Shown here: positions 11,960 through 45,988 of the stretch, piece by piece
Numbering within the stretch: position 1 is the first letter of the stretch
Layout of the letters: every line of letters begins with the position of its first letter
DNA from: an uncultured bacterium
GTDB lineage: Bacteria > Patescibacteriota > Patescibacteriia > UBA9570 > XYC2-FULL-38-9
Direction: 5' to 3'
DNA: 64,000 bases
NCBI GenBank assembly: GCA_937996685.1
Contig: CALKUP010000002.1
Coordinates: forward strand, 113,066 to 177,065
Program-made: the position numbers and the translations under genes
Notes under the pieces: generated by a model
The model's database searches: none
Told to the model about the DNA's origin: nothing
Seen by the model: only the letters and a program-made list of their open reading frames with translations

Positions 11960-11962
11960 TGT

Positions 11963-12406: not shown

Positions 12407-12410
12407 TCCT

Positions 12411-15400: not shown

Positions 15401-15596
15401 CAATGGTGGGTCGCCGGGAACCTGGACCGCGTGGTATGGTGCATCTGGAGCGGGAACCTATTTTACAGACGGTGATTATTCAACACCTCCAGATCAAGTG
15501 CAGAATAATCGTTGGGTGCAATACAAATTAGACCTCAATGGAACAGGTGGCGGAACGCCAGTCGTGCGAGAATTCAGAATATATTATGATAAATAA
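12411..15596 (+). CDS. Giant prepilin-type protein (1061 aa) with two tandem LamG / concanavalin-A-like lectin modules; candidate pilus-tip adhesin
   Basis: N-terminus RGFSIVEAMLAVAVFGIIVSG prepilin motif. Two internally duplicated modules of about 440 aa each begin LTSSGTDVDANTKGLWHLNDASG.. and LTSTGTDADANTVALWHMNEATSG.. (Laminin_G_3-like), each followed by a WKWWNGSAWATASSGT.. beta-sandwich. Confidence 0.7.
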   Translation: MKQLQIFQLWHRRNIRGFSIVEAMLAVAVFGIIVSGTVGALVYASQGGGDSGVRVRANFFAAEGITAVRSIAGHQWYDIQSAATGPHGLVVTGNVWTLSGSSDTRDQFTRTVTFTDICRNATNDFETCNGTNRDTRTREVAVTVQWTGQFGNARTVTQTARLTNWGTDMWKQTDWSGGDGQATWSAEDQYDSHTDDIDVTTAGEVTATGAQQGCGIKTYPLTTPADYTASGAELTLNSGTAFLTSSGTDVDANTKGLWHLNDASGTAKDVSGNNNNLTAAGNAAYGAAAKFATGVTSDGSGDLLAVTDAAQSGLDITGAITLEAWIKQGATGTGTDVIMEKNGGTAATGSYQLYMVSSGALNTTLNFRVSNGTSFTTVTSAAFAINTSTWRHVAAVYNGTSTLTIYLDGVSVGTAAFSSTILNSAADFRISSTGTSSFNGMIDEVRVSNSARYAGNFAVPTTPFGLNYSTTKPTVAPAVEYDPATIGRWQAFSETATKTRDAEIYYQLSDDSGATWKWWNGSAWATASSGTDYNTATTINTNITTFSTTAGKLNWRAFFVSNGSDPAVLDSVSLTCVMLQQWNYDTSGDYAADSGVAVSSGAAALTSTGTDADANTVALWHMNEATSGAVLQDYTANNNDLTPVGTTNITWNTTGNFNGAVQFGATGDYFQLAGAAQTGMAPSGSFTIDGWIKKSTNSADDLFQRWGTGLSTRSYKLSINTTGNLVFQTGDGVTNTSLTSATTVTTGSWVHVAGQFTQNSATTGTMTIWINGVQRGSISTTYGSVVSASQAVLLSNTSASAFGGVVDEFRFSNIARYSTTFTPQIVPFGKVYPTNSPTIRNVAAFSATDPVAWYGMTSTQTTFNESAVNYQVSNDGVTWKYWNGSAWATASSATHYNPIATINTNIATFPLTGNSLYFKAFLVSSGSDVVSIDRTEAMYVQNPDASGSGGGGGSGTLTSSAFNLGRATTITRVEWDEDDTPCAADCVIRAQVRTAPDNGGSPGTWTAWYGASGAGTYFTDGDYSTPPDQVQNNRWVQYKLDLNGTGGGTPVVREFRIYYDK

Positions 15597-15597
15597 G

Positions 15598-16110
15598 ATG
15601 AAGCACTCACAAGCCGGATTTACATTGATTGAATTACTGCTGTACGCTGGTATTGTTGCAATTATGACAACCGCGATTTCGGGCTTGCTTGCGCTGTCTC
15701 TTCAGGCGCGCGTCAAAAATCAAGTGGTGGAGTCAGTTGAAAGTGGCTCGACGATCGCAATGGACAGCATGCTTGCGGCAATTCGTAATAGCGACGGCGT
15801 GACACTGACAACAGATGGTAATGGTGATGCGATTGTGACGCTTGCAGAAACAGTTGCTGGAGTACATCCAACCGTCTTTCAATTGAGTGCTGGAGTCTTA
15901 ACAAAAAAAGAAGGAAGTAGCGCAGCAGTGCCGGTGACGTCTTCGAATATTGTCATTGATCATTTCACGGCAACAGACACAACGCCGAGCGGTGAAACAA
16001 TGCAAGTCATTTCTCTTGGATTTGATGTGCGTTATAATAATCAAAGTCCGCGTCAGGAATATCAGTATGCTGCAACGTATAATGGCACAGCGCAACTCAA
16101 CACACCGTAG
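15598..16110 (+). CDS. Prepilin-type minor pilin
   Basis: MKHSQAG|FTLIELLLYAGIVAIM classic short leader plus G-F-T-L-I-E. The ATG at 15598 sits 1 nt after the stop of the giant pilin gene. Confidence 0.75.
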   Translation: MKHSQAGFTLIELLLYAGIVAIMTTAISGLLALSLQARVKNQVVESVESGSTIAMDSMLAAIRNSDGVTLTTDGNGDAIVTLAETVAGVHPTVFQLSAGVLTKKEGSSAAVPVTSSNIVIDHFTATDTTPSGETMQVISLGFDVRYNNQSPRQEYQYAATYNGTAQLNTP

Positions 16111-16114
16111 TAGT

Positions 16115-16540
16115 ATGAACTATTTTCTTACACAATTAAGATATAGAGAATCCCAATCCGGTTACGTCTTGTTGCTCTCCGTTGTGATTATTGGAGTTGT
16201 TGCAAGTAGTATTGCCGCAACTATTTTGTTACTTGGGATTGGCACACAGCGGACGTCGCTCGCAGTGCAAGAAGGTCAGGCGGCGCGACATTTAGCTGAT
16301 AGTTGTGCTCAAGAAGTAATTGAGCGGCTTATTCAAAATACCGCCTATACTGGGAGTGAAACACTGACATTTAACGGTGAGAGTTGTGCGGTCGGGCCTG
16401 TGACAGGTTCAGGAGACGCAAATCGCGTTATCCATGTCACTGGGGTGTCAGGAGATGCAACCGCGCGCGTGGCTGTTACGGTGACAACAGTCGGTCCACC
16501 GGTGGTTATTGGTTCATGGCAAGAAGTTGCAGGCTTTTAG
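16115..16540 (+). CDS. Putative PilX-like minor pilin (hydrophobic N-terminal pilin-like helix, non-canonical cleavage site)
   Basis: N-terminus QSGYVLLLSVVIIGVVASSIAATILLLG resembles the PilX_N / GspK N-terminal segment. Overlaps the previous stop (tagtATG). Confidence 0.45.
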   Translation: MNYFLTQLRYRESQSGYVLLLSVVIIGVVASSIAATILLLGIGTQRTSLAVQEGQAARHLADSCAQEVIERLIQNTAYTGSETLTFNGESCAVGPVTGSGDANRVIHVTGVSGDATARVAVTVTTVGPPVVIGSWQEVAGF

Positions 16541-16569
16541 TTGCGCCTTTGCTTGGATTTTGGTATATT
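16541..16569 (+). promoter_or_regulatory. Strong sigma70-like promoter for the major pilin gene: TTGCGC-17-TATATT with TGG extension
   Basis: TTGCGC 16541-16546, 17-nt spacer, TGGTATATT 16561-16569. ATG at 16603. Confidence 0.5.
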
Positions 16570-16602
16570 GCCAATAATGTGTATTAATAAAATGATTTTT
16601 GT

Positions 16603-17046
16603 ATGAGGAAACAGAACCAAGGTTTTACATTATTAGAAATTTTGCTTGTTATCGCAGCGATCGGCATTTTGGCTGGTATTGTGATTGTTGCGATTAACCC
16701 AACAAAGCAACTCGCTGATGCGCGGAATGCGGCTCGTAAGTCAGCAGTCAATACTGTGCTGAACGCTGTATATCAATATGCAGTTGATAATGACGGTGCT
16801 CTGCCAGGAAGTATTCCAGAAACAGCGACAGAAATTTGTGCAACCGGCGCTGGAAGTTGTACAGGATTGGTGAATTTGTCTGCATTGACGACAAATGAAC
16901 GATATTTAACAGCAATCCCAGAAGATCCAAGTGGAACATGTGCGGCAAACGGTGCGTGTTATGAAATTCTGCAATCTGCAAACGGCCGTGTAACAGTCTC
17001 TGCTCCGGATGCTGAAAACGGTGCTGATATTTCAGTGACTCGTTAA
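16603..17046 (+). CDS. Type IV major pilin (PilA / ComGC / GspG-like)
   Basis: MRKQNQG|FTLLEILLVIAAIGILAGI canonical class III signal. 147 aa with two Cys pairs (C..C ; C..C) for C-terminal disulfide loops. Confidence 0.8.
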   Translation: MRKQNQGFTLLEILLVIAAIGILAGIVIVAINPTKQLADARNAARKSAVNTVLNAVYQYAVDNDGALPGSIPETATEICATGAGSCTGLVNLSALTTNERYLTAIPEDPSGTCAANGACYEILQSANGRVTVSAPDAENGADISVTR

Positions 17047-17643: not shown

Positions 17644-18117
17644 ATGAAGTGTCCAAGTTGCCAAAAACCTGATACTCGTGTGATTGACACACGAATGATT
17701 GAAGACGGAAGTTCCATTCGCCGCCGCCGCCAATGTGAGTTTTGTCATTTTCGTTTTACAACAGCTGAAGAGATTGAAATTTTAACACTCCACGTGATGA
17801 AGTCTGATGGGAGACGAGAAGCGTATGATCGCGAAAAGTTGCTCTATAGCATGAAGCTCCCATTGAGTAAACGACCGATTACAGCCGCGCAAATTAAAAA
17901 AACATTTCATCAGATTGAACAAGAAGTGCAATCACAAGCCAAACACGACAGCATCACAACGGCAAAGATTGGAGACATTGTTACAAAGTATTTGAAAAAA
18001 TTGGATAAAGTTGCATATATCCGGTATGCTTCTGTGTATCATGCCTTTGATGATTTACACGCCTTTGTCGAAGAGGTGGAAAAAATTTCTCGTAAGAAAA
18101 AAGCTAAGAAAAAATAA
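17644..18117 (+). CDS. nrdR: Transcriptional repressor NrdR (zinc ribbon plus ATP-cone)
   Basis: MKCPSCQ...CEFCHFRFTT zinc ribbon followed by an ATP-cone. Located upstream of the RNR gene. Confidence 0.9.
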   Translation: MKCPSCQKPDTRVIDTRMIEDGSSIRRRRQCEFCHFRFTTAEEIEILTLHVMKSDGRREAYDREKLLYSMKLPLSKRPITAAQIKKTFHQIEQEVQSQAKHDSITTAKIGDIVTKYLKKLDKVAYIRYASVYHAFDDLHAFVEEVEKISRKKKAKKK

Positions 18118-18119
18118 CT

Positions 18120-18692
18120 ATGCAATGGCATAAGCGTCCCAAAAAAGAATTTAACCCAAAAAAGCGTTTAGGAAAAATTCATGTCTACACAGGTGACGGA
18201 AAGGGCAAGACCTCTGCTGCGCTTGGTGTATTGCTGCGTGCAAGTGGACACAATATGAAGGTGTCGATGGTGCAATTATTTAAAGGCCATAAAGATGCTG
18301 GGGATTTACTCGCACACCAACTCCTTGGTTCAAATATTGAAATTTTGCAATTTGGAACAACAGAGCGCGTTGATCTAGAAAACCCAACAGCAATGGATCA
18401 ATATATTGCCACCCGCGCACTTGATCACGCGCGCGATATCATGCAATCAAATCGACCAGATATTTTGATTTTAGATGAATTTAATCCAGCACTCTTTCAT
18501 GGGATTGTTGATATATCTGAATTTTTAGATTTCCTTGATCATAAGCATCAAAATACAGAAATTATTATTACTGGCCATAATGCGCCGCCAGAGATTCTCA
18601 ATGCAGCTGATATTGTGACAGTGATGCGACAAACAAAAGGCGCGGTTGATGATTGGGATCTGTTTGAGCCTCGTTCGGGCGTTGAATTTTAG
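18120..18692 (+). CDS. cobA: Cob(I)alamin adenosyltransferase (CobA/CobO/BtuR family)
   Basis: P-loop IHVYTGDGKGKTSAALG, about 190 aa. Sits between nrdR and class II RNR. Confidence 0.75.
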   Translation: MQWHKRPKKEFNPKKRLGKIHVYTGDGKGKTSAALGVLLRASGHNMKVSMVQLFKGHKDAGDLLAHQLLGSNIEILQFGTTERVDLENPTAMDQYIATRALDHARDIMQSNRPDILILDEFNPALFHGIVDISEFLDFLDHKHQNTEIIITGHNAPPEILNAADIVTVMRQTKGAVDDWDLFEPRSGVEF

Positions 18693-18790
18693 CGAACGGG
18701 ACTGCAAAAAATTGCTGTTTCGACGTTTTTTGACGGAACGTTTTTTTTGCTTTATTCTGAATCAAGTATTCACTATTGTAACGATATTCT

Positions 18791-21202
18791 ATGTCACATG
18801 AACTCACTGGTTTGCGTCAAAAAGTCTTCTTAGATCGATATGCGCGGAAAGATGAAAAGGGGAATCCGATTGAAAAAAGCCCCAAAGAAATGTGGAAACG
18901 GGTAGCAAAAGCCATTGCCGAAAATGAAGCAGAAGACGTTCGTCCACAGTGGGAACAAAAATTTTATTCAGCACTCGAAGAATTTAAATTCGTGCCAGGT
19001 GGTCGTATTTTGACCGGTGCGGGTGTTGATCATGAATTGACATTTTATAATTGCTATGTGATTCCGTCTCCAGAAGATAGTCGGGGCGGTATTTTTGATT
19101 CCGTACGTACGATGGTGGAAATCATGTCTCGCGGTGGTGGCGTTGGTGTGAATTTATCATCAATTCGGCCGCGTGGTGCGCATGTCAAAGGCGTGAGCGG
19201 AACAGCCTCTGGTTCAGTGTCATTTGGTGGTCTCTATTCATTTGCAACCGGTCTTGTGATTCAAGGCGGGAGTCGTCGTGGAGCGTTGATGCTGATGTTG
19301 AATGATGATCATCCAGATATCGAGGAGTTTATCACCGTGAAGCGCACAATGGGCCTGATTACAAATGCGAATTTATCTGTGGCAGTTTCGGATCGTTTTA
19401 TGGAAGCAGTCGAGGCTGATGCAGATTGGGATTTGCAATGGCATGGCAAGGTCTACAAAACAGTGAAGGCTTCCTATTTGTGGAATTTGATTTGCGAAAG
19501 TGCGTGGGCATCTGGCGAGCCGGGTGTTGTGTTCATGGAGCGATATAACAAAGAATCCAATAGTTGGTATTTTGAAAAAATTATTTCTGTGAACCCGTGT
19601 GGTGAGCAAGGTTTGGGTGCGTGGAATGTGTGCAATCTCGGAGCGATTAATCTCTCTGCGTTTGTGGATGATTACGGCGTGATTGACCGTGAAGGGTTGC
19701 AAGAGACGATTCGGACAGCAGTGCGGTTTTTGGATAATGTAATTGATACAACTCCATATTTTTTCCCAGAAAATAAAGAAGCGCAATCGAATATTCGACG
19801 CACAGGTCTTGGAACAATGGGCTTGGCTGACGCGTTGATTAAAGCGAAAATTCCATACGGCTCTGCAGAAGCGGTTGCGTGGTGTGATGATATCTACAGC
19901 ATGATTCGAGATGAGGCGTATCGAATGAGTGCGGAAATTGCAGAAGAGAAAGGCGCGTTTCCAAAGTTTGATCGCGAGAAGTTTTTGCAAGGTCGTTTCA
20001 TCCAGCGGTTGCCGGAAGATATTCGAGAGTTGATTTCAGAGCATGGAATCCGTAATGGCATGTTGCTCACACAAGCACCAACTGGAACAACCAGTATTTT
20101 AGCCGGTGTGTCATCAGGCATCGAACCAGTCTATGATTTTGCATTTAAACGCAAAGATCGGTTAGGTGAACACATTGTCTATCATCCATTATACGAACAA
20201 TGGAAAAAGCATAATCCTGAAGCAACCGATGACAAACGTCCACCGCATTTTGTGTCCGCCAAAGAATTGTCTCCATTGGAGCATGTGCAAATGCAGGCAG
20301 TCGCGCAAACGTACACTGATTCATCTATTAGTAAAACAGTGAACGCGCCAAATGATCACACAGTTGAGCAAGTGAAAGAGTTGTATATGCAAGCCTATAA
20401 AATGGGTTGCAAAGGCATTGCATATTATCGAGACGGATCACGTGATGTCTCTGTGCTTGAGTCACTTGATGCGAAGCCAAAAGTAGCCGAGGCAGTTACA
20501 GTACCTGAAGAAAAGGCGCAAACAGTGAAAGTTCCAGTTGAGGCAGCAAGTGCTGTGCAGCAGAGCGCGCCACAGTTGCCGTCAATGCCGACTCCAGCAC
20601 CGCGTCCGGACGTCGTGGCTGGCGCGACCTATAAAGTGAAAACAGGCTACGGCACAATGTATGTCACGATTAATCACGATGAAGCCGGTAAGCCATTTGA
20701 GGTGTTTGCAACGATTGGAAAAGCCGGCGGCGTGTTTCAAGAAGAGTCAGAAGCGATTTGTCGTTTGATTTCATTGTCATTGCGATCAGGAATTTCTGTT
20801 GAAGCAGTAATTGATCAAATCAAAGGCATTCGTGGTCCAATGCCGACATGGACGAAAAACGGGCAAGTCCTCAGCGTTCCAGATGGCATTGCGCAAATTT
20901 TGCAACAACATCAAGCCAGTGCGAATCCACAATTACAGCTGCAGTTTGCCAGTAGTGCAAAACAGTTGTCAGGGAACGGAAAAGACCGTAGTGCAACAAC
21001 AGTTGCTGCTGCTGATACTGACGCTCCGACATCGTCTGCGGTTGCAGAGCAAGCACATGAGGCCGCTCCAGTGATGCCAACAAAACAACCGTCGATTGCG
21101 GATTCTGGGTTTGCGCCAGAGTGTCCAGAATGTAGTGCGACGTTGACATTGCAAGAAGGGTGCATGACCTGTTTTTCATGCGGATATAGTAAGTGCGCGT
21201 AA
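18791..21202 (+). CDS. nrdJ: Class II (adenosylcobalamin-dependent) ribonucleoside-triphosphate/diphosphate reductase with a C-terminal zinc-ribbon tail
   Basis: Active-site NPCGE, monomeric about 800 aa, C-terminal CPECS...CFSCGYSKCA. Confidence 0.9.
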   Translation: MSHELTGLRQKVFLDRYARKDEKGNPIEKSPKEMWKRVAKAIAENEAEDVRPQWEQKFYSALEEFKFVPGGRILTGAGVDHELTFYNCYVIPSPEDSRGGIFDSVRTMVEIMSRGGGVGVNLSSIRPRGAHVKGVSGTASGSVSFGGLYSFATGLVIQGGSRRGALMLMLNDDHPDIEEFITVKRTMGLITNANLSVAVSDRFMEAVEADADWDLQWHGKVYKTVKASYLWNLICESAWASGEPGVVFMERYNKESNSWYFEKIISVNPCGEQGLGAWNVCNLGAINLSAFVDDYGVIDREGLQETIRTAVRFLDNVIDTTPYFFPENKEAQSNIRRTGLGTMGLADALIKAKIPYGSAEAVAWCDDIYSMIRDEAYRMSAEIAEEKGAFPKFDREKFLQGRFIQRLPEDIRELISEHGIRNGMLLTQAPTGTTSILAGVSSGIEPVYDFAFKRKDRLGEHIVYHPLYEQWKKHNPEATDDKRPPHFVSAKELSPLEHVQMQAVAQTYTDSSISKTVNAPNDHTVEQVKELYMQAYKMGCKGIAYYRDGSRDVSVLESLDAKPKVAEAVTVPEEKAQTVKVPVEAASAVQQSAPQLPSMPTPAPRPDVVAGATYKVKTGYGTMYVTINHDEAGKPFEVFATIGKAGGVFQEESEAICRLISLSLRSGISVEAVIDQIKGIRGPMPTWTKNGQVLSVPDGIAQILQQHQASANPQLQLQFASSAKQLSGNGKDRSATTVAAADTDAPTSSAVAEQAHEAAPVMPTKQPSIADSGFAPECPECSATLTLQEGCMTCFSCGYSKCA

Positions 21203-26103: not shown

Positions 26104-26310
26104 TCAGCCTACTCTGACGAAACCGAATCTCGTGTCATACCCATATCCAACAAGCATGTTTGATGAGGTGTGGTGGACTTGAGGAGCGAGAGGGGGTTCT
26201 TCTTTGCTGTTGAGTTGCCTGAGCGCCTCCTCGATGCGCTCAGGTGATACTCCAGCCGCTTCAACCTCTTTGATGAGGGTGATCAATCTTCCCAGCTGTG
26301 CCTTCTTCAT
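26104..26310 (-). CDS. Small hypothetical protein (68 aa) with GC3-rich codon usage
   Basis: GGAG 9 nt upstream of the ATG. Helical N-terminus. Codon usage is unlike neighbouring genes. Could be spurious. Confidence 0.3.
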   Translation of the reverse strand: MKKAQLGRLITLIKEVEAAGVSPERIEEALRQLNSKEEPPLAPQVHHTSSNMLVGYGYDTRFGFVRVG

Positions 26311-26435
26311 CCCGTTTTCTCCTGCTGCTGAATAGCAACAATAAATAGTATTCTATTTTATGGATAAGTCAAGAGTGGTAAAAAGAGTCATTTAACAGCC
26401 TCTCTAACTCTGTCTTTATGTGCTGTGTCCGATAG

Positions 26436-26464
26436 TTGATTTTTTGGTTCTATCGCCCTATACT
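26436..26464 (+). promoter_or_regulatory. Sigma70-like promoter TTGATT-17-TATACT upstream of glmS
   Basis: TTGATT 26436-26441, 17-nt spacer, TATACT 26459-26464. glmS ATG 26491. Confidence 0.5.
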
Positions 26465-26490
26465 ACCGCAATACTATTGATTGAAATCCT

Positions 26491-28329
26491 ATGTGCGGAA
26501 TTATTGGATATGTTGGAAAAAAGCAAGCCCAGCCGATAATCATGGACGGCTTGAAGCGGCTGGAATATCGCGGATATGACAGCGCTGGGGTTGCGATTGT
26601 GCAACCAGATGGCGCTATTGGCGTTGCGAAAAAAGCTGGCAAATTATCTGTCCTTGGCGCAGAACTTGTGGCGCACCCGATCACTGGAACAGTTGGCATT
26701 GGTCACACGCGCTGGGCAACGCATGGTGGACCAACAGATGTGAATGCGCATCCGCATGGCGATTGCAAAAATGAAGTCTTTGTGATTCACAATGGCATCA
26801 TTGAAAATTTCCGTGAATTAAAAGCGAGCCTCGAACAAGATGGTCATACGTTTGTGTCTCAGACAGACACCGAAGTTGTCGCGCATTTAATTGAACGCGC
26901 ATACACTGCAGACGTGTCACTGGAAGCGGCTGTGCAAACAGTGCTTGGGGAAATTGTCGGAGCATACGGCTTATGTGTTGTTTCGAGTCGAGAGCCGGAA
27001 AAAATTGTTGCCGCGCGTCTTGGAAGTCCCTTGATTCTTGGTTTGTTGCCGGACAATGAATATATGGTTGCGTCTGGAATGACGGCGCTGTTGCCGTACA
27101 CTCGAGAAGTGATTTATATGGAAGAGCATGAAATGGCAGTGATTACACCAGCTGGATATACACTCACAACAACTGACAACCAAGCAGTGCAACGCGAAAG
27201 TGAGCATGTTGAATGGGATCTCGCGGCTGCAGAAAAAGGTGGCTTCGATCATTACATGCTCAAAGAAATGATGGAACAACCGCAAGTCGTTGTTGACGGG
27301 ATGCGAGGACGCTTGATTCCAGAAGAAGGCATTGCACATCTTGGTGGATTTTTGGAATACGAAGATCGATGGCGTGATATTGAACGTATTATTATTGTGG
27401 CATGTGGCAGTGCGGCGATTGCGGGGCAAATTGGTGAATACATGATTGAAGAATATGCCGGTATTCCTGTTGAAGTAGAGATTGGCTCAGAGTTTCGCTA
27501 TCGCAAGCCAGTACTCAACGACAAAACAGCGGTGATTTTTGTGTCACAATCTGGGGAAACAGCCGACACGATTGCGTGCTTGCGAGAAGTGAAGCGACAA
27601 GGTGTGTTGACGTTCGGTATTGTGAATGTGGTTGGCTCGACGCTTGCGCGCGAAGTCGATGGCGGTGCGTTTATTCATGCAGGACCTGAAGTGTCTGTTG
27701 CATCGACAAAAGCGCTCATGGGAATGATGAATTTGTTCGCGCAACTGACTGTCGCGCTTGGACGCAGTCGAGGAATGAGCCTTGTGACAGGCAAGCGCAT
27801 TTTAGAAGAAATGGAAGCGTTGCCGAAGCTGATGACTGACCTGCTGAATAATCGTGATGTGATTATGGCGCTCGGGAAAAAATACGCACACTATGATCAC
27901 GCGTTTTACTTGGGTCGGAAGTACAACTTTCCAATTGCGAGCGAAGGTGCGCTCAAATTAAAGGAGCTGGCGTATGTGCACGCAGAAGCCTATCCAAGTG
28001 GTGAGCTCAAACATGGTCCACTCGCATTAGTTGATGATCGGTTTTTCACTGTTGTGATTGCGCCAAAAGATTCAGTCTACGAAAAGTCAGTCAGCAATAT
28101 TCAAGAAGTCCGCGCGCGCGGCGGAAAAATGATTGTGATTGCGACAGAAGGGGACGATTCATTACGTGACATGGCAGATGACGTGATTTTTATTCCGAAG
28201 ACATTGGAGATGCTCACACCAATGCTGGCAGTGATTCCGTTGCAATTACTTGCGTATGCAATCGCCGTTGAGCGAGGGTGTGATATTGATCAGCCGCGCA
28301 ACCTTGCAAAATCAGTCACAGTTGAATAA
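26491..28329 (+). CDS. glmS: Glutamine--fructose-6-phosphate aminotransferase
   Basis: N-terminal MCGIIGY (Cys1 nucleophile), two SIS domains, C-terminal ...KSVTVE. Confidence 0.95.
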   Translation: MCGIIGYVGKKQAQPIIMDGLKRLEYRGYDSAGVAIVQPDGAIGVAKKAGKLSVLGAELVAHPITGTVGIGHTRWATHGGPTDVNAHPHGDCKNEVFVIHNGIIENFRELKASLEQDGHTFVSQTDTEVVAHLIERAYTADVSLEAAVQTVLGEIVGAYGLCVVSSREPEKIVAARLGSPLILGLLPDNEYMVASGMTALLPYTREVIYMEEHEMAVITPAGYTLTTTDNQAVQRESEHVEWDLAAAEKGGFDHYMLKEMMEQPQVVVDGMRGRLIPEEGIAHLGGFLEYEDRWRDIERIIIVACGSAAIAGQIGEYMIEEYAGIPVEVEIGSEFRYRKPVLNDKTAVIFVSQSGETADTIACLREVKRQGVLTFGIVNVVGSTLAREVDGGAFIHAGPEVSVASTKALMGMMNLFAQLTVALGRSRGMSLVTGKRILEEMEALPKLMTDLLNNRDVIMALGKKYAHYDHAFYLGRKYNFPIASEGALKLKELAYVHAEAYPSGELKHGPLALVDDRFFTVVIAPKDSVYEKSVSNIQEVRARGGKMIVIATEGDDSLRDMADDVIFIPKTLEMLTPMLAVIPLQLLAYAIAVERGCDIDQPRNLAKSVTVE

Positions 28330-28395
28330 ACTAGTAGTGACACATCATTGACAAGACAAAACACCTCGGCCGCATGAATGCTTTCGGGGTGTTTT

Positions 28396-29721
28396 ATGTT
28401 TCATCGATCAACCGTCGTGTTATTTCTTTTGCTGCTCGTGTGCGCTGTTTCAGTGTGGCGTCATCCAACTCCACGAGAGGTGAGCGCGGTGTATTTTCAT
28501 GATGCCGACAGAGTGCAGTTCGATGACGTGCGCGCTGTGGTTGTGCGCGAGCCAGATGTCTCTGAACACGACCAGCGGATCACAATTGCCGTTGATGGGC
28601 TTGGGGCGCAAGAAGAGTATTACGTGCGGATTACAACTGACGTCTATCCGTTTGTTCGCATTGGCGATGTGTTTGAGTTGTCGTGTGTTTTCAAGCGGCC
28701 GGAACCATTTGATGGTTTTGCATATGATGCCTATTTATTACGGTATCGAATTATCGCGGAATGCCGTCAACCGCAGATTCGTATTATCGGTAGAGAAGAA
28801 ACGATCCTCACGCACATCATTGATCAAAAGTTGTGGCTCATTGAACGATTGCAGCGCGATCTTCCATTGCCGGAAGCCGGTTTGTTGCTGGGGATTGTAT
28901 TCGGGGAAATGCGCGCGTTGCCTGATGAAATATTACAAGCCTTTCAAGTCACGGGCACATCCCATTTGTTGGTGATTTCTGGTTCAAATATTGTGCTCAT
29001 CACCGGCTGGATTCAAGCGTTCCTCCGGTGCTGTACAGCTGAACGCGGACGCATTCTGATTATTTTGGTTGCACTGACTGGATATACGGTAATGACCGGT
29101 GTGCAGCCATCTGCGACGCGCGCGGCAATTTTTGGCGGGATTATTTTGTGCAGCAATGCATTTGGTCGGCCGAATCAAGCGCTGCGTGGACTTGTGTACA
29201 CAGGGATTGTGATGGTCATTCTCAATCCGTTGATCTTGCTCTATGACGCCGGCTTTCAATTATCGTGGCTTGCAAGTTGCGGCATGATTGTTTGGAGTGA
29301 CCGGCTAACGAAAGCGCTGTCGTTTGTCCCCGAGCGTTTTGAATTACGCGCGGCTGCAAGCGCGACCCTCAGCGCGACGCTGATCACAACGCCGCTGTTG
29401 GTGGCGCAATTTCAAGTATTTTCTGTGATTGGATTTATTGCGAACCTCTTTTTGGTTCCACTTCTGTCTTCGTTTTTATTACTTGGCATTCTCTACACGG
29501 CGTGCGCTGTGGTGTTGCCGTGGCTCGCTGCGCTGGTGAGCGTGCCATTTCTTGTGGTGTTGCGTTACAGCGTGACCTTCGTGCTCTTTTTTTCGCACGT
29601 GCCGTATGCGCAAGTTCCGACGACTGTACCAGTCTCCAGCATGGTGATGTGCTATGCTGTACTCGGAATCTATATCTTGTACGTCATGCTCAAAAAACCT
29701 CAGTATCACTTTTATGAATAA
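28396..29721 (+). CDS. comEC: DNA internalisation competence protein ComEC/Rec2, membrane-channel part (DUF4131 plus competence domain)
   Basis: Conserved HLLVISGSNI and polytopic C-terminal region. The ORF track start at 28378 lies in a hairpin loop, so the ATG at 28396 is preferred. Confidence 0.75.
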   Translation: MFHRSTVVLFLLLLVCAVSVWRHPTPREVSAVYFHDADRVQFDDVRAVVVREPDVSEHDQRITIAVDGLGAQEEYYVRITTDVYPFVRIGDVFELSCVFKRPEPFDGFAYDAYLLRYRIIAECRQPQIRIIGREETILTHIIDQKLWLIERLQRDLPLPEAGLLLGIVFGEMRALPDEILQAFQVTGTSHLLVISGSNIVLITGWIQAFLRCCTAERGRILIILVALTGYTVMTGVQPSATRAAIFGGIILCSNAFGRPNQALRGLVYTGIVMVILNPLILLYDAGFQLSWLASCGMIVWSDRLTKALSFVPERFELRAAASATLSATLITTPLLVAQFQVFSVIGFIANLFLVPLLSSFLLLGILYTACAVVLPWLAALVSVPFLVVLRYSVTFVLFFSHVPYAQVPTTVPVSSMVMCYAVLGIYILYVMLKKPQYHFYE

Positions 29722-30631
29722 TACGAACGCAGAGCAGATTCGTGAAAAACGCAGCCGCCTCTTTTCATGGGTGATATTTTTCATATTACTCAGTGTGTCT
29801 GGTTTTGTTGCCTGGCAAGCAATGTCGACAATGCAGCAGCAATGGACACAAGACGGTGGGGTTCTGCGAGTGACGCAGCTCAATGTTGGTCAAGGCGATG
29901 GATTGCTTGTGCAAACCCCGCAAGGCAACGACATTCTTATTGACGCTGGTCGTGATCGTCGGATTCTGTCTGAAATCGGCACAGTGCTGCAGCCGTGGAA
30001 TACAACAATTGAATATGTGATCGCAACCCATGAAGACGCTGATCATATTGGTGGATTTCCGTTTATCGCACAGCAGTATCAGATCAATGAATGGATTGTG
30101 AGTGGTCGAACAAAAGAGACTACTGTCACAAAAGAATTGCATGCAGCGCAAGAGCGTGAAGGAGTGATGCATGTTGCGACAGCTGGAGAATCTATTGCGA
30201 TAGAAGATGGTGTTAGTCTTGAAATTCTCAGTCCAGATCAAGATGTGCCAGCCCATGAAGATATTAATGATGATTCAGTTGTGGCGATTTTGCACTACCA
30301 CGACTTTGCTCTTGCGCTCACCGGGGATGCTGGAATCACGTCTGAAAATGAGATCATGAAGCGTCACGAGCCAATTGATGTTGATATTCTGAAGGCCGGG
30401 CATCATGGTAGCAAGACCTCAACAAGTCCAGAGTTTTTGCAGTGGCTCGATCCGGAAATTGTGCTGATTTCCGCTGGGCAAGACAATGATTACGGGCATC
30501 CGCATTATCGAGTGCTGCACGATATTGAGCAATATGGCGCCTGGATATTCCGTACAGACAAAGATGGTCGAATTACATGTGAAACAGAGGGACTGCCAGG
30601 AGATGTTCAGTGTTCCAGGCAGTATGAATAA
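29714..30631 (+). CDS. ComEC C-terminal metallo-beta-lactamase domain encoded as a separate TM-anchored ORF
   Basis: HxHxDH-type motif ATHEDADHIGG, GHHGSKTS. N-terminal TM SWVIFFILLSVSGFVAW. Start ATGAATAA overlaps the comEC stop by 8 nt. Confidence 0.75.
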   Translation: MNNTNAEQIREKRSRLFSWVIFFILLSVSGFVAWQAMSTMQQQWTQDGGVLRVTQLNVGQGDGLLVQTPQGNDILIDAGRDRRILSEIGTVLQPWNTTIEYVIATHEDADHIGGFPFIAQQYQINEWIVSGRTKETTVTKELHAAQEREGVMHVATAGESIAIEDGVSLEILSPDQDVPAHEDINDDSVVAILHYHDFALALTGDAGITSENEIMKRHEPIDVDILKAGHHGSKTSTSPEFLQWLDPEIVLISAGQDNDYGHPHYRVLHDIEQYGAWIFRTDKDGRITCETEGLPGDVQCSRQYE

Positions 30632-30642
30632 TCAAATTTTTG

Positions 30643-30651
30643 TGGTATACT
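30643..30651 (+). promoter_or_regulatory. Extended -10 TGGTATACT; ndh ATG 6 nt downstream (leaderless)
   Basis: TGGTATACT 30643-30651. ATG 30658. The ORF track start at 30640 lies inside the -10. Confidence 0.5.
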
Positions 30652-30657
30652 GCTGAC

Positions 30658-31883
30658 ATGCAAGCAAAAAGACACCTTGTAATTGTTGGTGCTGGATTTG
30701 GAGGATTGTCCGCTGCTTTAACGTTCGCTGAGGCAATTGAAAAGGGGAAGCAGCCACAGTTTGATATTACGGTGATTGATAAAAACGATTACCAGCTCTA
30801 TACACCTGATTTATATGAAATTGCGGCAGGGAGTGCCACTATTCAAGATAGTGTAGAGTTGAAAAAAACTGTCTGCATTGACGTGAAGCTTGCCTTGGCG
30901 CAATATCACATTCGATTTTTGTCTGCGACGGTCAATGGGGTGAATCGAGCGCATAAGACGGTCGAAACCTCAAAAGGAGTAATTGGATACGATTATCTAT
31001 TGTTGTCGCCTGGGAGCATCGCATTTGATTACGGAATACCAGGAATTGCCGAGCATGCAGTGAATTTAAAAACAGCGCATGATGCATTGCAGATTCGTGA
31101 GTCAATTATGGAACGCGTGCAACACGGGCTACCAACACGGATTGCAGTGTGTGGAGCGGGTCCAGCTGGTTCGGAGCTTGCAGCCGAGCTGGCGTTTGTC
31201 TACGGTCGTGAAAGCGCTGGCTTGGTGTCAGTCGCATTAGTTGATGGCGGTGAGCGTGTTCTGGGTGCGATGTCACCGGCAGTGAGTCGTCGTGCTGAAA
31301 AGCGATTGCAAAAACTGAACGTCGAATTACACCATCGTTTTCGCATTGCCTCTGTTACCGCTGACTCTTTGACAAGTACAACGGGAGACACGCTAGCGGC
31401 AGATATTATTATTTGGACCGGCGGAGTGACGGCGAATCCGTTGATGCAGGCCCTTGGCCTTGAATTAAATACGCACGGACAATTGCCCGTGGCAGCGACA
31501 TTCCAATCAGCGGAAGATTCTGCGATTTTTGCAATTGGTGACAGCGCGCAAATTCCACTGCCGGGCACAGATGGTGTGTTTGCACCGCAGACAGCGTACG
31601 AGGCGGTGACACAAGGAGAAAAGGTGGCGTGGAATATCCTGTTGCATGATGCAGGCGGGCATTTACAAGCCTATCATTCCCGTTTTCCGGGATATGTTGT
31701 CGCGTTAGGAGGAAAATATGGTGTTGTTGCGTTGCCAAAAAATATCGTTTTATCGGGAAGAATTGGCTATCTTGCTCGAAAAATCATTGATTTTAACCAT
31801 TTCCGTAGCGTTCTGCCCTTTATGCAAGCCTGCGCTTTTTGGTATACTGGTATGCAGTTAATGAATAAGAATGATTCATCCGT

Positions 31884-37509: not shown

Positions 37510-38046
37510 ATGACATTTTTTTGTATGCATACAAAAAGCCATCCACAACAAAAAGTCCATAAACGGTTTCAAAAACACGTGTTTGGCGCTGTTCGTGATG
37601 CAAAAAATGATACTCCTCAACCAGATGAACCGCGCCGCACTTCGCGTACTTCAAAATCCGTTGGTGCAATTGTCTTGAATCAAAAATTGCAAGTGTTGCT
37701 TATTTTTCAACAACAAAATAAATATTGGGAATTTCCAAAAGGGAAAATGGAAGCCGGAGAAGATGAAGTTGCGACATTGAAACGCGAAATCAACGAAGAG
37801 ACAGGAATTCGGAAATTTCGTTTGGTGCATAATTTTCGGAAATTAATGTATTACACATTTCGATTTGAAGGCTCAACGATTCGTCGGAGTGTTGTGTATT
37901 ACTTGATTCAAACTGGTGATCCAATTCAGTTGTCAGATGAGCATTCTCAATATATGTGGCTCTCATTTGATGCAGCAAAGAAAAAGCTCAAACATAAAAA
38001 TCAAATTAAATTGCTCGATCAGGTAACAGAATTGATTTATGGGTAA
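37510..38046 (+). CDS. NUDIX hydrolase with a basic N-terminal extension
   Basis: Nudix box GKMEAGEDEVATLKREINEETGI. Start is ambiguous between 37510 and 37525. Confidence 0.7.
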   Translation: MTFFCMHTKSHPQQKVHKRFQKHVFGAVRDAKNDTPQPDEPRRTSRTSKSVGAIVLNQKLQVLLIFQQQNKYWEFPKGKMEAGEDEVATLKREINEETGIRKFRLVHNFRKLMYYTFRFEGSTIRRSVVYYLIQTGDPIQLSDEHSQYMWLSFDAAKKKLKHKNQIKLLDQVTELIYG

Positions 38047-39742
38047 ATTGTTTCAATGGCAGGTTGCGGAAAAGATTAGTGAAGCGGAATTGTTGCGTTT
38101 CCCAGAATTTTCTGAGCTTGTGATTCAACTGCTTGCGAATCGTGGAATCACAGAAACAGCGGACATCGAATCATTTTTGCAACCAGATTATTTTCAAGAT
38201 CAACACGATCCTTTTTTGTTTCGTGATATGCGCGTTGCCGTTGATCGCATTAATCAGGCACTGAAGAATAAAGAAAAAATTACTATTCATGGTGATTATG
38301 ATGCGGATGGTGTGTGTGCATCTGCGGTGCTCTACAAAACCTTAATCGCGCTTCATGCTGATGTTGATTATTACTTACCGCATCGTGACACTGAGGGCTA
38401 TGGCTTGAACATGAACACAGTGGCAAAATTGAAAGCCGCTGGAACGCAATTAATCATTACGGTTGATTGTGGGATTTCCAATAAGCCAGAAGTTCAAGCA
38501 GCGGTTGATGCTGGAATGGAAGTGATTGTAACGGATCATCACAGTGAACCGCCGGAATTGCCAGATGCAGCGCTCGCTGTCTTGAATCCAAAAATTGCTG
38601 CAGAGCCATATCCATTTAAATATCTTGCGGGTGTTGGAGTGTCCTTTAAGCTCTGTCAGGCATTGATTCGTGAGCATGGTTTAGGCGAAGCATTTGAAAA
38701 ATGGCTCCTTGACTTAGTCGCGATTAGTACAGTGACAGATTTTGTGGAACTGGTTGGTGAAAACCGCGTCTTTTTGAAATACGGTTTAGTGGTGCTACAA
38801 AAAAATCAACGCCCTGGTTTGCGCGAACTGTTTGCGGTGATGGGCAAGGAAGCGAAAGATGCGACAGCTGAGACTATTGGGTTTCATATCGGTCCGCACA
38901 TTAATGCAGCAGGTCGCGTTAATCATGCCAATCAAGCACTGGAGCTTGTATTAGAAGAAAACCGAGACAATGCACAAGTGATGGCAAAGCAACTTGCAGC
39001 AACAAATAAAGAGCGGCAAGTGCAAAGTGGTAAAATGAGCAAAGAGGCGCTCGAGCAAGCCTTGTTGCAAACCAATGAAACCGTTATTATCGTTGAAGGG
39101 GATGAATGGCCGGTTGGATTAGTCGGACTTGTAGCAGGAAAAGTTGCATCTGAATATAACCGACCGACGTTTGTGATTACGACTATGGGCGACGAAATTG
39201 TTGGGAGTGGTCGTTCAATCCCGCAGTTCCATCTTGTTGAAGCGTTGCAATCCATGGATGAAGTGTTTACAAAATACGGCGGACATCCAGGAGCGTGTGG
39301 TTTTTCATTGAAAGACCGCGAAGCCTTGGAAGAGTTCAAGGTGCGCATGCGTGCTCGTGGAAACGAGTTGCTTGCTGGCAAGGATTTACGAAAGATTGTG
39401 AAAGCTGAAAAAGAAATCACACTTGGTGAAGCAGATTGGAATCTGGTTTCAACCGTTGAACAATTTGCTCCGTATGGTCAAAGCAATCCCGAGCCAATTT
39501 TTGTCTCTCGCGGTGTGCGTATTGAAAAAATTGATTGCGTTGGGAAAACCCAAGCGCATTTACGGATGCGTGTTTCGCAAGACGGTGTTGTGCGTCCATG
39601 CATTGGATTTTCTCTCGGTGAGTTGTGTGAAGAATTTCCAGCTGGAAGCATGGTGAATATTGCCTACACCATTTCAGTGAATGAATGGAACGGTAACAAA
39701 GATATTCAATTTCAGTTAATTGATATTGAAGCAGTAGAATAA
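38039..39742 (+). CDS. recJ: Single-stranded-DNA-specific exonuclease RecJ
   Basis: DHH motifs (HGDYDADG, DHH at VTDHH), DHHA1 and C-terminal OB region. 567 aa. Confidence 0.9.
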   Translation: MGKLFQWQVAEKISEAELLRFPEFSELVIQLLANRGITETADIESFLQPDYFQDQHDPFLFRDMRVAVDRINQALKNKEKITIHGDYDADGVCASAVLYKTLIALHADVDYYLPHRDTEGYGLNMNTVAKLKAAGTQLIITVDCGISNKPEVQAAVDAGMEVIVTDHHSEPPELPDAALAVLNPKIAAEPYPFKYLAGVGVSFKLCQALIREHGLGEAFEKWLLDLVAISTVTDFVELVGENRVFLKYGLVVLQKNQRPGLRELFAVMGKEAKDATAETIGFHIGPHINAAGRVNHANQALELVLEENRDNAQVMAKQLAATNKERQVQSGKMSKEALEQALLQTNETVIIVEGDEWPVGLVGLVAGKVASEYNRPTFVITTMGDEIVGSGRSIPQFHLVEALQSMDEVFTKYGGHPGACGFSLKDREALEEFKVRMRARGNELLAGKDLRKIVKAEKEITLGEADWNLVSTVEQFAPYGQSNPEPIFVSRGVRIEKIDCVGKTQAHLRMRVSQDGVVRPCIGFSLGELCEEFPAGSMVNIAYTISVNEWNGNKDIQFQLIDIEAVE

Positions 39743-44308: not shown

Positions 44309-45988
44309 ATGGCAAAAGTAACCAAAAAAGGTAGTCGCAAAAAAGCGTATGCCCCGAAATATGTTTTTGTTGTTGGTGGTGTGATGTCGTCTGTTGGAAA
44401 AGGTGTTGCAGCGTCATCGATTGCATTAATTTTGCAATCACGTGGCTATCGAATCACTGCGATGAAAGCTGATCCATACATTAACGTTGATGCCGGAACA
44501 ATGAACCCAACAGAACACGGAGAAGTGTTTGTCACTGCTGACGGTGATGAAACAGATCAAGATATTGGGAACTATGAACGGTTTTTACATCAAGATATTC
44601 ATAAAGTAAATTACATGACAACAGGTCGTGTCTATTTGGATGTTATTCAACAAGAGCGTAATTTACAGTACCAAGGGAAGTGCGTTGAGGTTGTGCCGCA
44701 TATTCCATTGAATATTATTTCTCGGATTAAAAAAGCGCAAAAAACAGATGATGCTGAAATTACTGTTATTGAAATCGGCGGAACAGTTGGGGAATATCAA
44801 AGTGCGTTGTTTTTAGAAGCGGCTCGCATGATGAAAAATGAGCGTCCAGAAGATGTGGCGATTGTGCTTGTGAGTTACTTGCCTGTGCCATCAGCAGTTG
44901 GTGAGATGAAAACAAAGCCGACACAAACAGCAGTTCGTCAATTAAATGAAGCTGGTTTGCAAGCGGACTTTATTATTGCGCGTAGTGAAAAACCGATTGA
45001 TGCTGTTCGTAAAGAAAAGTTATCTGTATTCTGTGCGGTGAAACCAGAGAATATTATCGCAGCGCCAAATATTGATAGTATTTATGCGGTGCCACAAGCC
45101 TTTGAAGATGAAGGTCTTGGGGTTGCGATGTTGAAGACATTGAAATTAAAAACAAAGCGCGTGACAGCAAAAACAGCACTTGAGCAATTAAATGCTGTTG
45201 TGAACGTTTCGCGTACAGCAAAAGATACGGTAAAAATTGCGGTTGTTGGAAAGTATTTCGCAACTGGTGAATTTGTATTGTCAGATGTGTATATTTCTGT
45301 CATCGAGGCATTGAAACACGCGGCATGGAGTCAAAAACGTCAAATTGAATTGACATGGGTTGATGCAGAGGATTATGAAACGCATCCAAATAAGGTAAAA
45401 GAGTTGGGTGATTTTGATGGCGTGCTTGTGCCTGGAGGTTTTGGATCACGAGCGATCGAAGGAAAAATTCGAGCGATTCAATATGTCCGTGAAAACAAGA
45501 TTCCATACTTTGGCTTGTGTTACGGTATGCAATTGGCATGTGTTGAAGTGGCGCGAAATGTTGCTGGTCTTACTGGTGCGCACACTGTTGAAATTGATCA
45601 ACAAACAGATCATCCGATTATTATTGTGAATCCGAATCAAAAAAATAACATCGAAGCAAAACAATACGGCGGAACACTTCGCCTTGGAAGTTACCGTTGT
45701 GATCTCGCTCCTGGAAGCAAGACACAAAAAGCGTATGGCGTGAATACTGTTTCAGAGCGTCATCGTCATCGATATGAATTTAACAATGATTACGTTGATC
45801 AATTAGAAAATGCTGGGCTGGTTATTTCTGGAATTAACCCAGAACAAGGCTTGGTTGAAATTGTTGAATTAAAAGATCATCCGTGGTTTGTTGGTACGCA
45901 ATTTCATCCGGAGTTCTTGTCTCGTCCGTTGACACCGCATCCGTTATTTGTTGGTTTTGTTAAAGCAGCTATTGTCCGCAGCAAGTAA
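44309..45988 (+). CDS. pyrG: CTP synthase
   Basis: KYVFVVGGVMSSVGKG, GATase domain GLCYGMQLA, HRHRYEFN. Confidence 0.95.
   Translation: MAKVTKKGSRKKAYAPKYVFVVGGVMSSVGKGVAASSIALILQSRGYRITAMKADPYINVDAGTMNPTEHGEVFVTADGDETDQDIGNYERFLHQDIHKVNYMTTGRVYLDVIQQERNLQYQGKCVEVVPHIPLNIISRIKKAQKTDDAEITVIEIGGTVGEYQSALFLEAARMMKNERPEDVAIVLVSYLPVPSAVGEMKTKPTQTAVRQLNEAGLQADFIIARSEKPIDAVRKEKLSVFCAVKPENIIAAPNIDSIYAVPQAFEDEGLGVAMLKTLKLKTKRVTAKTALEQLNAVVNVSRTAKDTVKIAVVGKYFATGEFVLSDVYISVIEALKHAAWSQKRQIELTWVDAEDYETHPNKVKELGDFDGVLVPGGFGSRAIEGKIRAIQYVRENKIPYFGLCYGMQLACVEVARNVAGLTGAHTVEIDQQTDHPIIIVNPNQKNNIEAKQYGGTLRLGSYRCDLAPGSKTQKAYGVNTVSERHRHRYEFNNDYVDQLENAGLVISGINPEQGLVEIVELKDHPWFVGTQFHPEFLSRPLTPHPLFVGFVKAAIVRSK

Follow-up and report, generated by a model that had tools for sequence, protein, structure and literature searches.

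The ComEC locus of this window (the whole stretch of 64,000 nucleotides that was analysed) raises the question of whether a gene that canonically encodes one polypeptide has been broken, by error or by mutation, or whether two genes encode two parts of a single DNA-uptake machine. Its membrane channel and its metallo-beta-lactamase (MBL) nuclease lie on two overlapping open reading frames, ORF1 and ORF2. Comparison with related sequences indicates that this is very probably a genuine two-gene ComEC, standard for the Patescibacteria (CPR), whose channel and nuclease, we infer, reassemble for DNA uptake.

ORF1 starts at 28378 or 28396 and runs on the forward strand to 29721, with the C-terminus ...KKPQYHFYE and a TAA stop codon at 29719-29721. 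ORF2 (29714..30631, + strand, 305 aa) begins in the +1 frame relative to ORF1 with an ATG at 29714-29716 (MNNTNAEQIREKRSRLFSWVIFF...); the ORF1 TAA sits 5 nt downstream of this ATG, and the 8 nt shared by the two ORFs, ATGAATAA (29714..29721, + strand), are the overlap that the earlier note had reported together with the ...QYHFYE end. The ORF2 frame is open for a further 60 nt 5' of its ATG, from another ATG at 29654, and the two frames share 68 nt; the alignment with 30 homologues and the upstream context favour 29714 over 29654 as the start. The two candidate starts of ORF1 are those of the database protein P0121 (28378, 447 aa) and of the earlier note (28396, 441 aa). A strong hairpin (28354-28394, -23.3 kcal/mol, z=-3.1) encloses the 28378 ATG and stops just 5' of the 28396 ATG, which is preceded by a T-rich context typical of starts in this genome. 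A search of the genes in the window found Shine-Dalgarno motifs to be essentially absent from them, so that their absence before ORF2 is uninformative. Scanning of positions 26300-31000 for promoters and terminators gave no convincing internal promoter for ORF2 (6 promoter-like sites, 7.0 being expected by chance).

ORF1 is assigned as the ComEC channel subunit by its matches to PF03772, DUF4131 and TIGR00361, by a PDB match and by its AF2 model. It has a single N-terminal TM helix, followed by an OB fold and then by the Competence transmembrane channel domain (PF03772; 28894..29688, + strand, residues 173-437), whose match is strong (E=5e-51, 174 bits with a Pfam cut-off of 23). The DUF4131 match is weak (E=6e-7, 29.7 bits, just below the Pfam cut-off of 31.6) and the OB fold was counted as present; an annotation as PF13567 is precomputed for P0121. 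The OB-fold (DUF4131-type) region (28510..28794, + strand, residues ~45-139) is predicted to be extracytoplasmic, and residues 45-139 form the beta-rich domain of the AF2 model (pLDDT 90.4). Foldseek searches of the PDB with this model gave only weak matches to OB-fold DNA binders (such as SSB and HIN domains; probability 0.84-0.99, all E>0.1), because the library used (to April 2026) contains no full-length ComEC. The newer PDB copy used for sequence searches does contain it, and there ORF1 matches residues 216-484 of the full-length ComEC 30bt_A (E=4e-22). The order of helices and strands in the model is that of the TM4-TM10/NS5-NS7 topology of N. carbonis ComEC (PMC13539106), and the C-terminus is predicted to be cytoplasmic.

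ORF2 is assigned as the nuclease subunit by PF00753/PF12706, TIGR00361, PDB, AF2 and Foldseek matches, and it is predicted to consist of a basic cytoplasmic N-tail, one TM helix and an extracytoplasmic MBL-fold nuclease domain; the division into a channel and a TM-anchored nuclease that the earlier note had drawn is correct. The anchor FSWVIFFILLSVSGFVAWQAMS (29762..29827, + strand, residues ~17-38), recognized by hydropathy and in the AF2 model (pLDDT 93.6; helix 4-46), corresponds in alignments to the final TM helix of fused ComECs and is predicted to be N-in/C-out, because four Arg/Lys residues lie N-terminal of the helix and none after it. Sequence searches of the PDB match ORF2 to residues 535-791 of 30bt_A (E=1.6e-30) and to residues 511-792 of 9vc6_A (which is probably from B. 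halodurans), and the best Foldseek match of its model is 9ic4, a ComEC beta-lactamase-like domain (E=1e-23, TM 0.85), the phosphorylcholine esterase Pce ranking second. The motifs ATHEDADHIGG (from ~30023) and GHHGSKTS (from ~30398), already noticed earlier, contain the putative active site. The metal-binding motif H106-E-D108-A-D110-H111 (HxDxDH; 30029..30046, + strand) aligns with H598-x-D600-x-D602-H603 of M. glycerini ComEC, H230 and S233 of the H230-H231-G232-S233 motif (30401..30412, + strand) align with H725 and S728, and D205 (30326-30328, + strand), an additional metal ligand, aligns with D700. Mutating H725/S728 or D700 in the M. glycerini nuclease domain lowers or abolishes its nuclease activity. 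Among 31 homologues (alignment A1) the HxDxDH motif is invariant or nearly so, and HHGS and D205 are invariant. By alignment, the predicted MBL domain of ORF2 holds all the catalytic residues (H106, D108, D110, H111, D205, H230, S233) for Mn-dependent nuclease activity, their counterparts in the M. glycerini domain being residues that have been mutated there.

The two proteins cover complementary parts of full-length ComEC, both in the PDB matches and in TIGR00361 (ComEC_Rec2, 663 positions), where ORF1 spans positions 80-383 and ORF2 positions 440-663 (E=9e-42 for ORF2); the split is real. Their TIGR00361 scores, 102 and 143 bits, are both under the full-length cut-off of 190, and the single polypeptide that this equivalog describes for ComEC/Rec2 is replaced here by modules on two ORFs in different frames. 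Alignment with full-length ComECs, which had been proposed as a check of the domain boundary, locates the break after the penultimate TM helix and before the final one, in the loop that joins TM10 to TM11 on the cytoplasmic side in the solved ComEC structures, as judged from the aligned sequences; this comparison places the fission point on newly solved structures. Cryo-EM of ComEC showed a cytoplasmic helix between TM10 and TM11, an MBL domain on a flexible linker and one protomer without TM11 (PMC13539106). With the break in this loop, TM11 would become the anchor of the nuclease and, the loop being cytoplasmic, both products would retain their native topology.

The earlier note, by contrasting the split with the canonical single polypeptide, had implied that it is unusual, but two genes are standard in Patescibacteria, and the absence of ComEC fusion in CPR had already been published (Méheust et al. 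2019, PMC6744442). None of the 26 closest channel homologues carries an MBL domain; the MBL homologues, among at least 120 matches listed, are all 250-403 aa long and all but one <=320 aa, and 133 of the 150 nearest MBL cluster representatives (50% identity) are stand-alone proteins (~290 aa, <=345 aa). Across 80 GTDB-species loci, none of the ~50 labelled as Patescibacteria is fused, and fused genes were seen only outside this group, for example in Chloroflexota and Firmicutes. In 17 other loci, from divergent CPR lineages, the channel and MBL genes are adjacent or overlapping (spacing of -44 to +36 nt), with a 4-nt ATGA overlap in L002, L003, L030 and L045 and with the 8-nt ATGnnTAA overlap of the window in L015, L050 and L059. 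In other relatives an opposite-strand gene for SOD (superoxide dismutase) or DedA intervenes, or the genes are >4 kb apart; junctions range from a 44-nt overlap to a gap of >2 kb, gaps of 12-201 nt included. L002 and L003 keep the order prfA-glmS-channel-MBL, and their proteins share 41-47% identity with those of the window. The window pair fits this two-gene pattern: its channel has no MBL domain, its MBL protein is separate (such proteins being ~270-320 aa, with one N-terminal TM helix), and its MBL gene follows downstream on the strand of the channel gene, which it overlaps. In an NJ tree of 82 MBL modules, built to count fissions, fused Chloroflexota sat among the split CPR sequences; the tree had a star-like shape and too little resolution for use. 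On these sequence comparisons, the ComEC of the window is one more case of a known, lineage-wide two-gene arrangement and not a rarity. The literature searches turned up no paper explicitly describing a ComEC nuclease with a gene of its own in CPR, Méheust et al. (2019) coming closest; NCBI names these unfused genes 'ComEC/Rec2 family competence protein' or 'MBL fold metallo-hydrolase'. The separate nuclease gene persists in many Patescibacteria lineages and would be missed by surveys of ComEC domain counts.

In the proposed working of the pair, the product of the first gene would be a membrane channel made of one TM helix, an outward-facing, DNA-binding OB fold and a Competence domain reaching through TM10, and that of the second gene a type-II membrane protein whose single helix would correspond to TM11 of fused ComEC and whose MBL domain would face outward. 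Both genes would be co-transcribed, and ribosomes that stop at the ORF1 TAA would go on to translate ORF2. The products would then reassemble in the membrane through packing of TM11 and the weak OB-MBL contact known from fused ComEC, and the nuclease at the channel mouth would degrade one strand of the pilus-delivered dsDNA while the other enters the cell. Translational coupling, as claimed earlier, agrees with the overlap, which is of a kind associated with coupling, although tight coupling is not required, because many relatives have the two genes separated or >4 kb apart. Separate expression is possible, since relatives carry an opposite-strand gene between the two; for the window itself, the 8-nt stop/start overlap makes co-expression more likely than the independent regulation or stoichiometry that had been suggested. 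A stronger reading, which we put forward tentatively and rate slightly below even chances, is that the two-gene ComEC of CPR is an obligate two-subunit translocon, its nuclease docked in trans via TM11 and the OB-MBL contact, and that many inferred 'losses' of Lactamase_B are then gene fissions. The ComEC evolution studies that inferred such losses counted domains only inside the Competence-containing protein, and no explicit statement of an obligate two-subunit CPR ComEC was found in the literature searched. According to structural work, a flexible linker and a weak contact with the OB fold are probably all that holds the MBL domain. A lineage with separate subunits offers a natural test of covalent tethering; if the obligate reading were true, it would be a natural system in which to test whether the nuclease needs to be tethered to the channel.

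Of the other explanations, the one that survives best, although it is unlikely, is that the MBL protein acts on its own, as an extracellular nuclease or phosphodiesterase with a membrane anchor, and no longer works with the channel, its adjacency being a relic of ancestral fusion or fission; it might then serve in nucleotide or phosphate scavenging or in cell-surface processing. The many CPR loci in which opposite-strand genes lie between the pair, or in which the pair is not found within 4 kb, would fit such a protein, as would the presence of Pce among the next-best fold matches. Selenomonas, Clostridium and a methanogen (an archaeon) also have related MBLs that stand alone and carry a signal peptide or a lipobox, and no channel gene was found near them in flanks of up to 4 kb on each side. 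Furthermore, the Saccharibacterium Southlakia epibionticum, whose ComEC is the only one of CPR tested genetically, transforms with a channel-only ComEC; its comEC is needed for natural transformation but, by Tn-seq, not for fitness (Wang et al. 2023, PMC10633639), and the MBL partner may therefore be dispensable for DNA uptake. Against this, there is an 8-nt overlap between the MBL and channel genes of the window, and tight linkage recurs in the 17 loci from divergent CPR lineages; the anchor helix is homologous to TM11 of ComEC and is not a cleavable signal peptide; and the top sequence and fold matches are bona fide ComEC nuclease domains, ahead of the others by many orders of magnitude.

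It is very improbable that an originally fused comEC was split by an indel from sequencing or assembly, or by a frameshift that recently made it a pseudogene. One +1/-2 indel within 29654-29721 would indeed join the frames, given that the ORF2 frame is open 60 nt upstream, and there is an A6 run at 29693-29698 (within CTC AAA AAA CCT). The junction recurs on just one further contig, L001, whose sequence is identical (100% over 3259 bp) at ~2.6x coverage; it is therefore not an independent population and lends the junction no independent support. However, in all close and distant Patescibacteria relatives the split falls between TM10 and TM11 as well, with junction sequences that differ, which argues against the indel that the earlier note had considered; ORF2 has an ATG, a short basic tail and a TM helix as in 30 homologues, and neither half is damaged, catalytic and structural residues being conserved. 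The artefact was thus rejected on comparative grounds, the relatives having no intact single ORF and ORF2 having its own start and N-terminus. Programmed +1 ribosomal frameshifting to make full-length ComEC, besides or instead of the two proteins, is hardly credible and was rejected as well: the 68-nt frame overlap would allow the +1 shift needed, but the A6 run favours a -1 slip into the wrong frame, neither a slippery nor a stall motif was seen to be conserved, the homologues all carry start codons of their own, and the 4-nt overlaps, 12-201 nt gaps and intervening genes of relatives allow no such shift. In annotation, the two genes should be kept separate, as ComEC channel subunit and ComEC-type nuclease subunit, neither merged nor flagged as a frameshift.

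Type IV pilus genes are present in the window (9123-17046), in agreement with the pilus locus cited earlier, and comEA, dprA and comFC, proposed as further checks, were not found among its ORFs of at least 130 aa. The argument from a lack of nucleotide biosynthesis is weakened by the finding that comEC is not needed for fitness in the one tractable CPR bacterium mentioned above (PMC10633639). Competence and nucleotide scavenging are not established by the finding of a two-gene ComEC.

Compared with known systems, the window pair shares with fused ComEC/Rec2 (B. subtilis; N. carbonis, 30bt; 9vc6) the module order (OB fold, Competence channel, MBL nuclease) and the HxDxDH/D/HHGS active site, with the OB fold and the MBL domain both predicted outside the membrane; it differs in being two polypeptides and in having one TM helix ahead of the OB fold, where fused ComEC has three. 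H. pylori ComEC is a precedent for a protein without the MBL domain and with a single N-terminal TM helix. EndA of S. pneumoniae, which is unrelated to the MBL fold, is a precedent for a membrane-bound nuclease that degrades the strand as a separate protein, whereas the separate nuclease in the window is the ComEC MBL module itself. The ComEC of S. epibionticum (SEML1_0777, 482 aa) is, like ORF1, a channel-only CPR protein with DUF4131 and Competence domains; its gene neighbours are YebC and tRNA-Lys, whereas in the window the nuclease gene lies directly downstream, and no ComEC-type MBL is listed for S. epibionticum in the supplementary tables of that study (Wang et al. 2023, PMC10633639). 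The closest likeness is to the unfused ComEC of Patescibacteria/CPR (PMC6744442), with its channel-only gene and separate gene for a TM-anchored MBL protein of ~290 aa, and within it to the Kerfeldbacteria-like relatives, which share the prfA-glmS-channel-MBL synteny and the overlap types. The window departs from these in its proteins (nearest identity of 41-47%), in its overlap of 8 nt, as compared with 4 nt in the closest relatives, and in an N-terminus shortened to one TM helix.

The earlier note had described ComEC as split into two translationally coupled genes, and the observation itself, two overlapping ORFs in different frames, is confirmed by their coordinates. The channel gene (ORF1, plus strand) starts at ATG 28378 (or 28396) and stops at TAA 29719-29721, its protein ending in ...KKPQYHFYE, and the nuclease gene (ORF2, plus strand, +1 frame relative to ORF1) runs from an ATG at 29714 to 30631; they overlap by the octamer ATGAATAA. 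The assignment of the competence and metallo-beta-lactamase (MBL) domains to the first and second ORF is borne out by a Competence domain in ORF1 (PF03772, E=5e-51; a DUF4131 match is sub-threshold) and a Lactamase_B/Lactamase_B_2 domain in ORF2. All of the 31 MBL homologues compared begin with Met and a short basic tail ahead of a TM helix, and for this reason the ORF2 start at 29714 is favoured over an upstream ATG at 29654.

Against TIGR00361, the ComEC_Rec2 equivalog of NCBIfam (663 positions), ORF1 covers positions 80-383 and ORF2 positions 440-663, both scoring under the full-length cut-off. In a MAFFT alignment of the concatenated ORF1 and ORF2 with eight fused ComECs drawn from the GTDB species loci described below and one Peribacillus ComEC, the break lies in the loop joining the last two TM helices. 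The two halves are complementary. According to cryo-EM of ComEC, this TM10-TM11 loop is cytoplasmic and contains a short helix (CH1), and a flexible linker joins TM11 (unresolved in one protomer) to the periplasmic MBL domain (PMC13539106). The break falls at a topologically neutral cytoplasmic loop. KK follows the last helix of ORF1; in ORF2, four Arg/Lys precede the helix and the twelve residues following it contain none. Since this distribution agrees with a cytoplasmic break, both products can be predicted to insert in the native topology, with the OB fold and the nuclease outside.

The nuclease module itself is well preserved. In a search of PDB sequences, which now include solved full-length ComEC structures, residues 51-296 of ORF2 match residues 535-791 of 30bt_A (E=1.6e-30), and residues 14-288 match residues 511-792 of 9vc6_A, a match that includes the anchor helix. 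An AlphaFold model built from the homologue alignment (pLDDT 93.6) contains a long helix (4-46) followed by the MBL fold, and its top structural match is 9ic4, the crystal structure of a ComEC beta-lactamase-like domain (E=1e-23, TM 0.85), which leads the next one (esterase Pce) by eleven orders of magnitude. Mutagenesis of the M. glycerini nuclease domain showed that H598, D600, D602, H603, D700, H725 and S728 matter; they correspond to H106, D108, D110, H111, D205, H230 and S233 of ORF2, which are invariant or nearly so among the 31 homologues. The nuclease active site is intact, and the two genes, both intact, jointly encode a complete ComEC.

The 48-nt gap between glmS (stop at 28329) and ORF1 contains a strong hairpin (28354-28394, -23.3 kcal/mol, z=-3.1) with UUUUAUGUUU next to it on the 3' side, and the two look like an intrinsic terminator of glmS; the hairpin loop includes the annotated ORF1 ATG (28378), and the alternative ATG (28396) comes directly after the hairpin. 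Of about 44 gene starts in the window (e.g., 1057, 9123, 26491, 29714 and 33155), almost none is preceded within 20 nt by a Shine-Dalgarno-like motif, and the upstream regions are A/T-rich, often with TTTT or ATAT just before the ATG (window GC is 44%), which suggests SD-independent initiation in the source organism. Translational coupling is plausible, because Shine-Dalgarno motifs are missing from genes in the window and the sequence ahead of 29714 is T-rich, as at other starts. ORF1 and ORF2 would be co-transcribed, with ORF2 coupled to ORF1 via the 8-nt overlap, and their products would reassemble in the membrane, where the nuclease would break down, at the mouth of the channel, the strand that is not transported.

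In the main rival reading, the nuclease would work alone, apart from the channel, which we consider improbable, although uncoupled loci do exist. Eighty loci were fetched from GTDB species genomes and their stop-to-stop ORFs scored with HMMs of both halves. In about 22, a stretch of 0.5-2.5 kb separates the MBL gene from the channel gene upstream of it, and this gap is usually filled by an opposite-strand gene, in a dozen loci (L005, L006, L008, L011, L013, L025, L027, L029, L031, L032, L048 and L057, of Paceibacteria type) an Fe/Mn superoxide dismutase (about 197 aa, DMWEHAY motif, Sod_Fe_C E=4e-24); a DedA/VTT membrane protein lies between the two genes in L018-L020. In further loci the flanking sequence at hand (up to 4 kb on either side of the MBL gene) contains no channel gene, so the MBL gene can be an independent transcription unit. 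Distant stand-alone relatives (L061, L083, L066, L071, L078 and L069, from Selenomonas, Megamonas, Clostridium psychrophilum and the archaeon Methanoculleus formosensis) have a signal peptide or lipobox (e.g., LLAGC) instead of the TM11-like anchor, and their flanks, covered for at most 4 kb per side, showed no Competence-domain gene. The same alternative is favoured by the tractable Saccharibacterium S. epibionticum, which transforms with a channel-only ComEC (482 aa, DUF4131 and Competence domains only, encoded beside YebC and tRNA-Lys); this comEC is needed for transformation and not for fitness (Wang et al. 2023, PMC10633639), and in the supplementary tables available the sole PF00753 protein is RNase J.

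A sequencing or assembly artefact is rejected as the cause of the split, the Patescibacteria relatives being split likewise with a conserved ORF2-type N-terminus. In a collection of 5.8 billion proteins, the best 120 MBL homologues are all 250-403 aa long (all but one at most 320 aa), the named ones coming from Patescibacteria, and the best 26 channel homologues (413-552 aa) lack the MBL domain, fused ones (700-780 aa) ranking only below them. Exhaustive HMMER searching of 1.84 billion cluster representatives gave 133 of the 150 best matches at 345 aa or less and 12 at 580 aa or more. No fused gene is present in any of the roughly 50 Patescibacteria-labelled loci among the 80 scored; the single ORFs (700-914 aa) come from Chloroflexota, Firmicutes, Longimicrobium, Acidobacteriota and UBP8. 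The two genes are adjacent in 17 loci, through ATGA (L002, L003, L030 and L045), ATGnnTAA as in the window (L015, L050 and L059), longer overlaps (7-44 nt) or gaps (0-36 nt), and the order prfA-glmS-channel-MBL is common to the window and its nearest relatives at only 41-47% protein identity. A second contig with the junction (L001) is not independent evidence, because it is 100% identical over 3259 bp. These comparisons show that the two-gene arrangement is conserved across the Patescibacteria lineage. The genes are also split in MAGs labelled Chthonomonadales (L030, 4-nt overlap) and Gammaproteobacteria (L055); either the split exists outside this lineage or the contigs are mis-binned. The label 'uncultured Candidatus Saccharibacteria', carried by many TPA assemblies, may be unreliable too.

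The pilus locus of the earlier note is present as a type IV pilus cluster (9123-17046: PilB-type ATPase, PilC and four proteins bearing prepilin N-methylation motifs). One of these four, a 1061-aa protein (12411-15596), also has Laminin_G_3 (concanavalin-like lectin) domains and resembles a giant minor pilin or adhesin. The search for comEA, dprA and comFC found none among window ORFs of at least 130 aa; RecJ is encoded at 38039-39742. Upstream of comEC lie NrdR, a corrinoid (cob(I)alamin) adenosyltransferase and a class II-like ribonucleotide reductase of 803 aa that contains a TSCPD domain (17644-21202), then RF-1 and GlmS, and downstream an NADH-dehydrogenase-like flavoprotein, PGK, enolase and iPGM. 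With CTP synthase (44309-45988), the reductase cluster indicates some capacity for nucleotide interconversion. Elsewhere (51982-53810), the gene for cytochrome bd oxidase subunit I (435 aa) overlaps by 4 nt a downstream 174-aa ORF that lacks a Pfam match, in the place where a normal-sized subunit II would be expected, and two proteins near opposite window ends (1057-1878 and 62314-63054) carry bacterial thrombospondin type 3 (TSP3) calcium-binding repeats.

According to Méheust et al. 2019 (PMC6744442), 86% of CPR genomes contain a ComEC family, and that study had already published that the fusion is absent in CPR. Pimentel & Zhang (2018) catalogued DUF4131+Competence ('DC') proteins and described Lactamase_B 'losses', because domains were counted solely inside the Competence-containing protein; some stand-alone MBL proteins are already named 'ComEC/Rec2 family competence protein' in databases. 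In the library searched, no paper described the nuclease as kept in the form of a separate TM11-anchored subunit beside the channel gene; to say so is a modest synthesis and no new kind of system. The pair is one further example of a lineage-typical two-gene ComEC, and the earlier interpretation accordingly stands in part.

In its architecture, ORF1 resembles known channels. In the PDB sequence search its residues 158-434 align with 216-484 of chain 30bt_A, which is 801 aa long (E=4e-22), and its AlphaFold model from the homologue alignment (pLDDT 90.4) has a TM helix (10-28), a beta-rich domain (45-139), a long helix (143-161) and a helical bundle, in which two helices lie between a pair of short strands (347-349 and 412-414), ahead of the last TM helix (419-439). 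N. carbonis ComEC has the same order: OB fold, amphipathic NS1, TM4-TM9, strand-NS6-NS7-strand and TM10 (PMC13539106). The segment before the OB fold (28378-28510) differs, with only about 44 residues and a single TM helix in ORF1, whereas N. carbonis has three and most channel homologues have 75-103 residues with 2-3 hydrophobic segments. This short N-terminus is common to ORF1 and its closest relatives (proteins P0122, P0123 and P0136), and recalls the ComEC of H. pylori.
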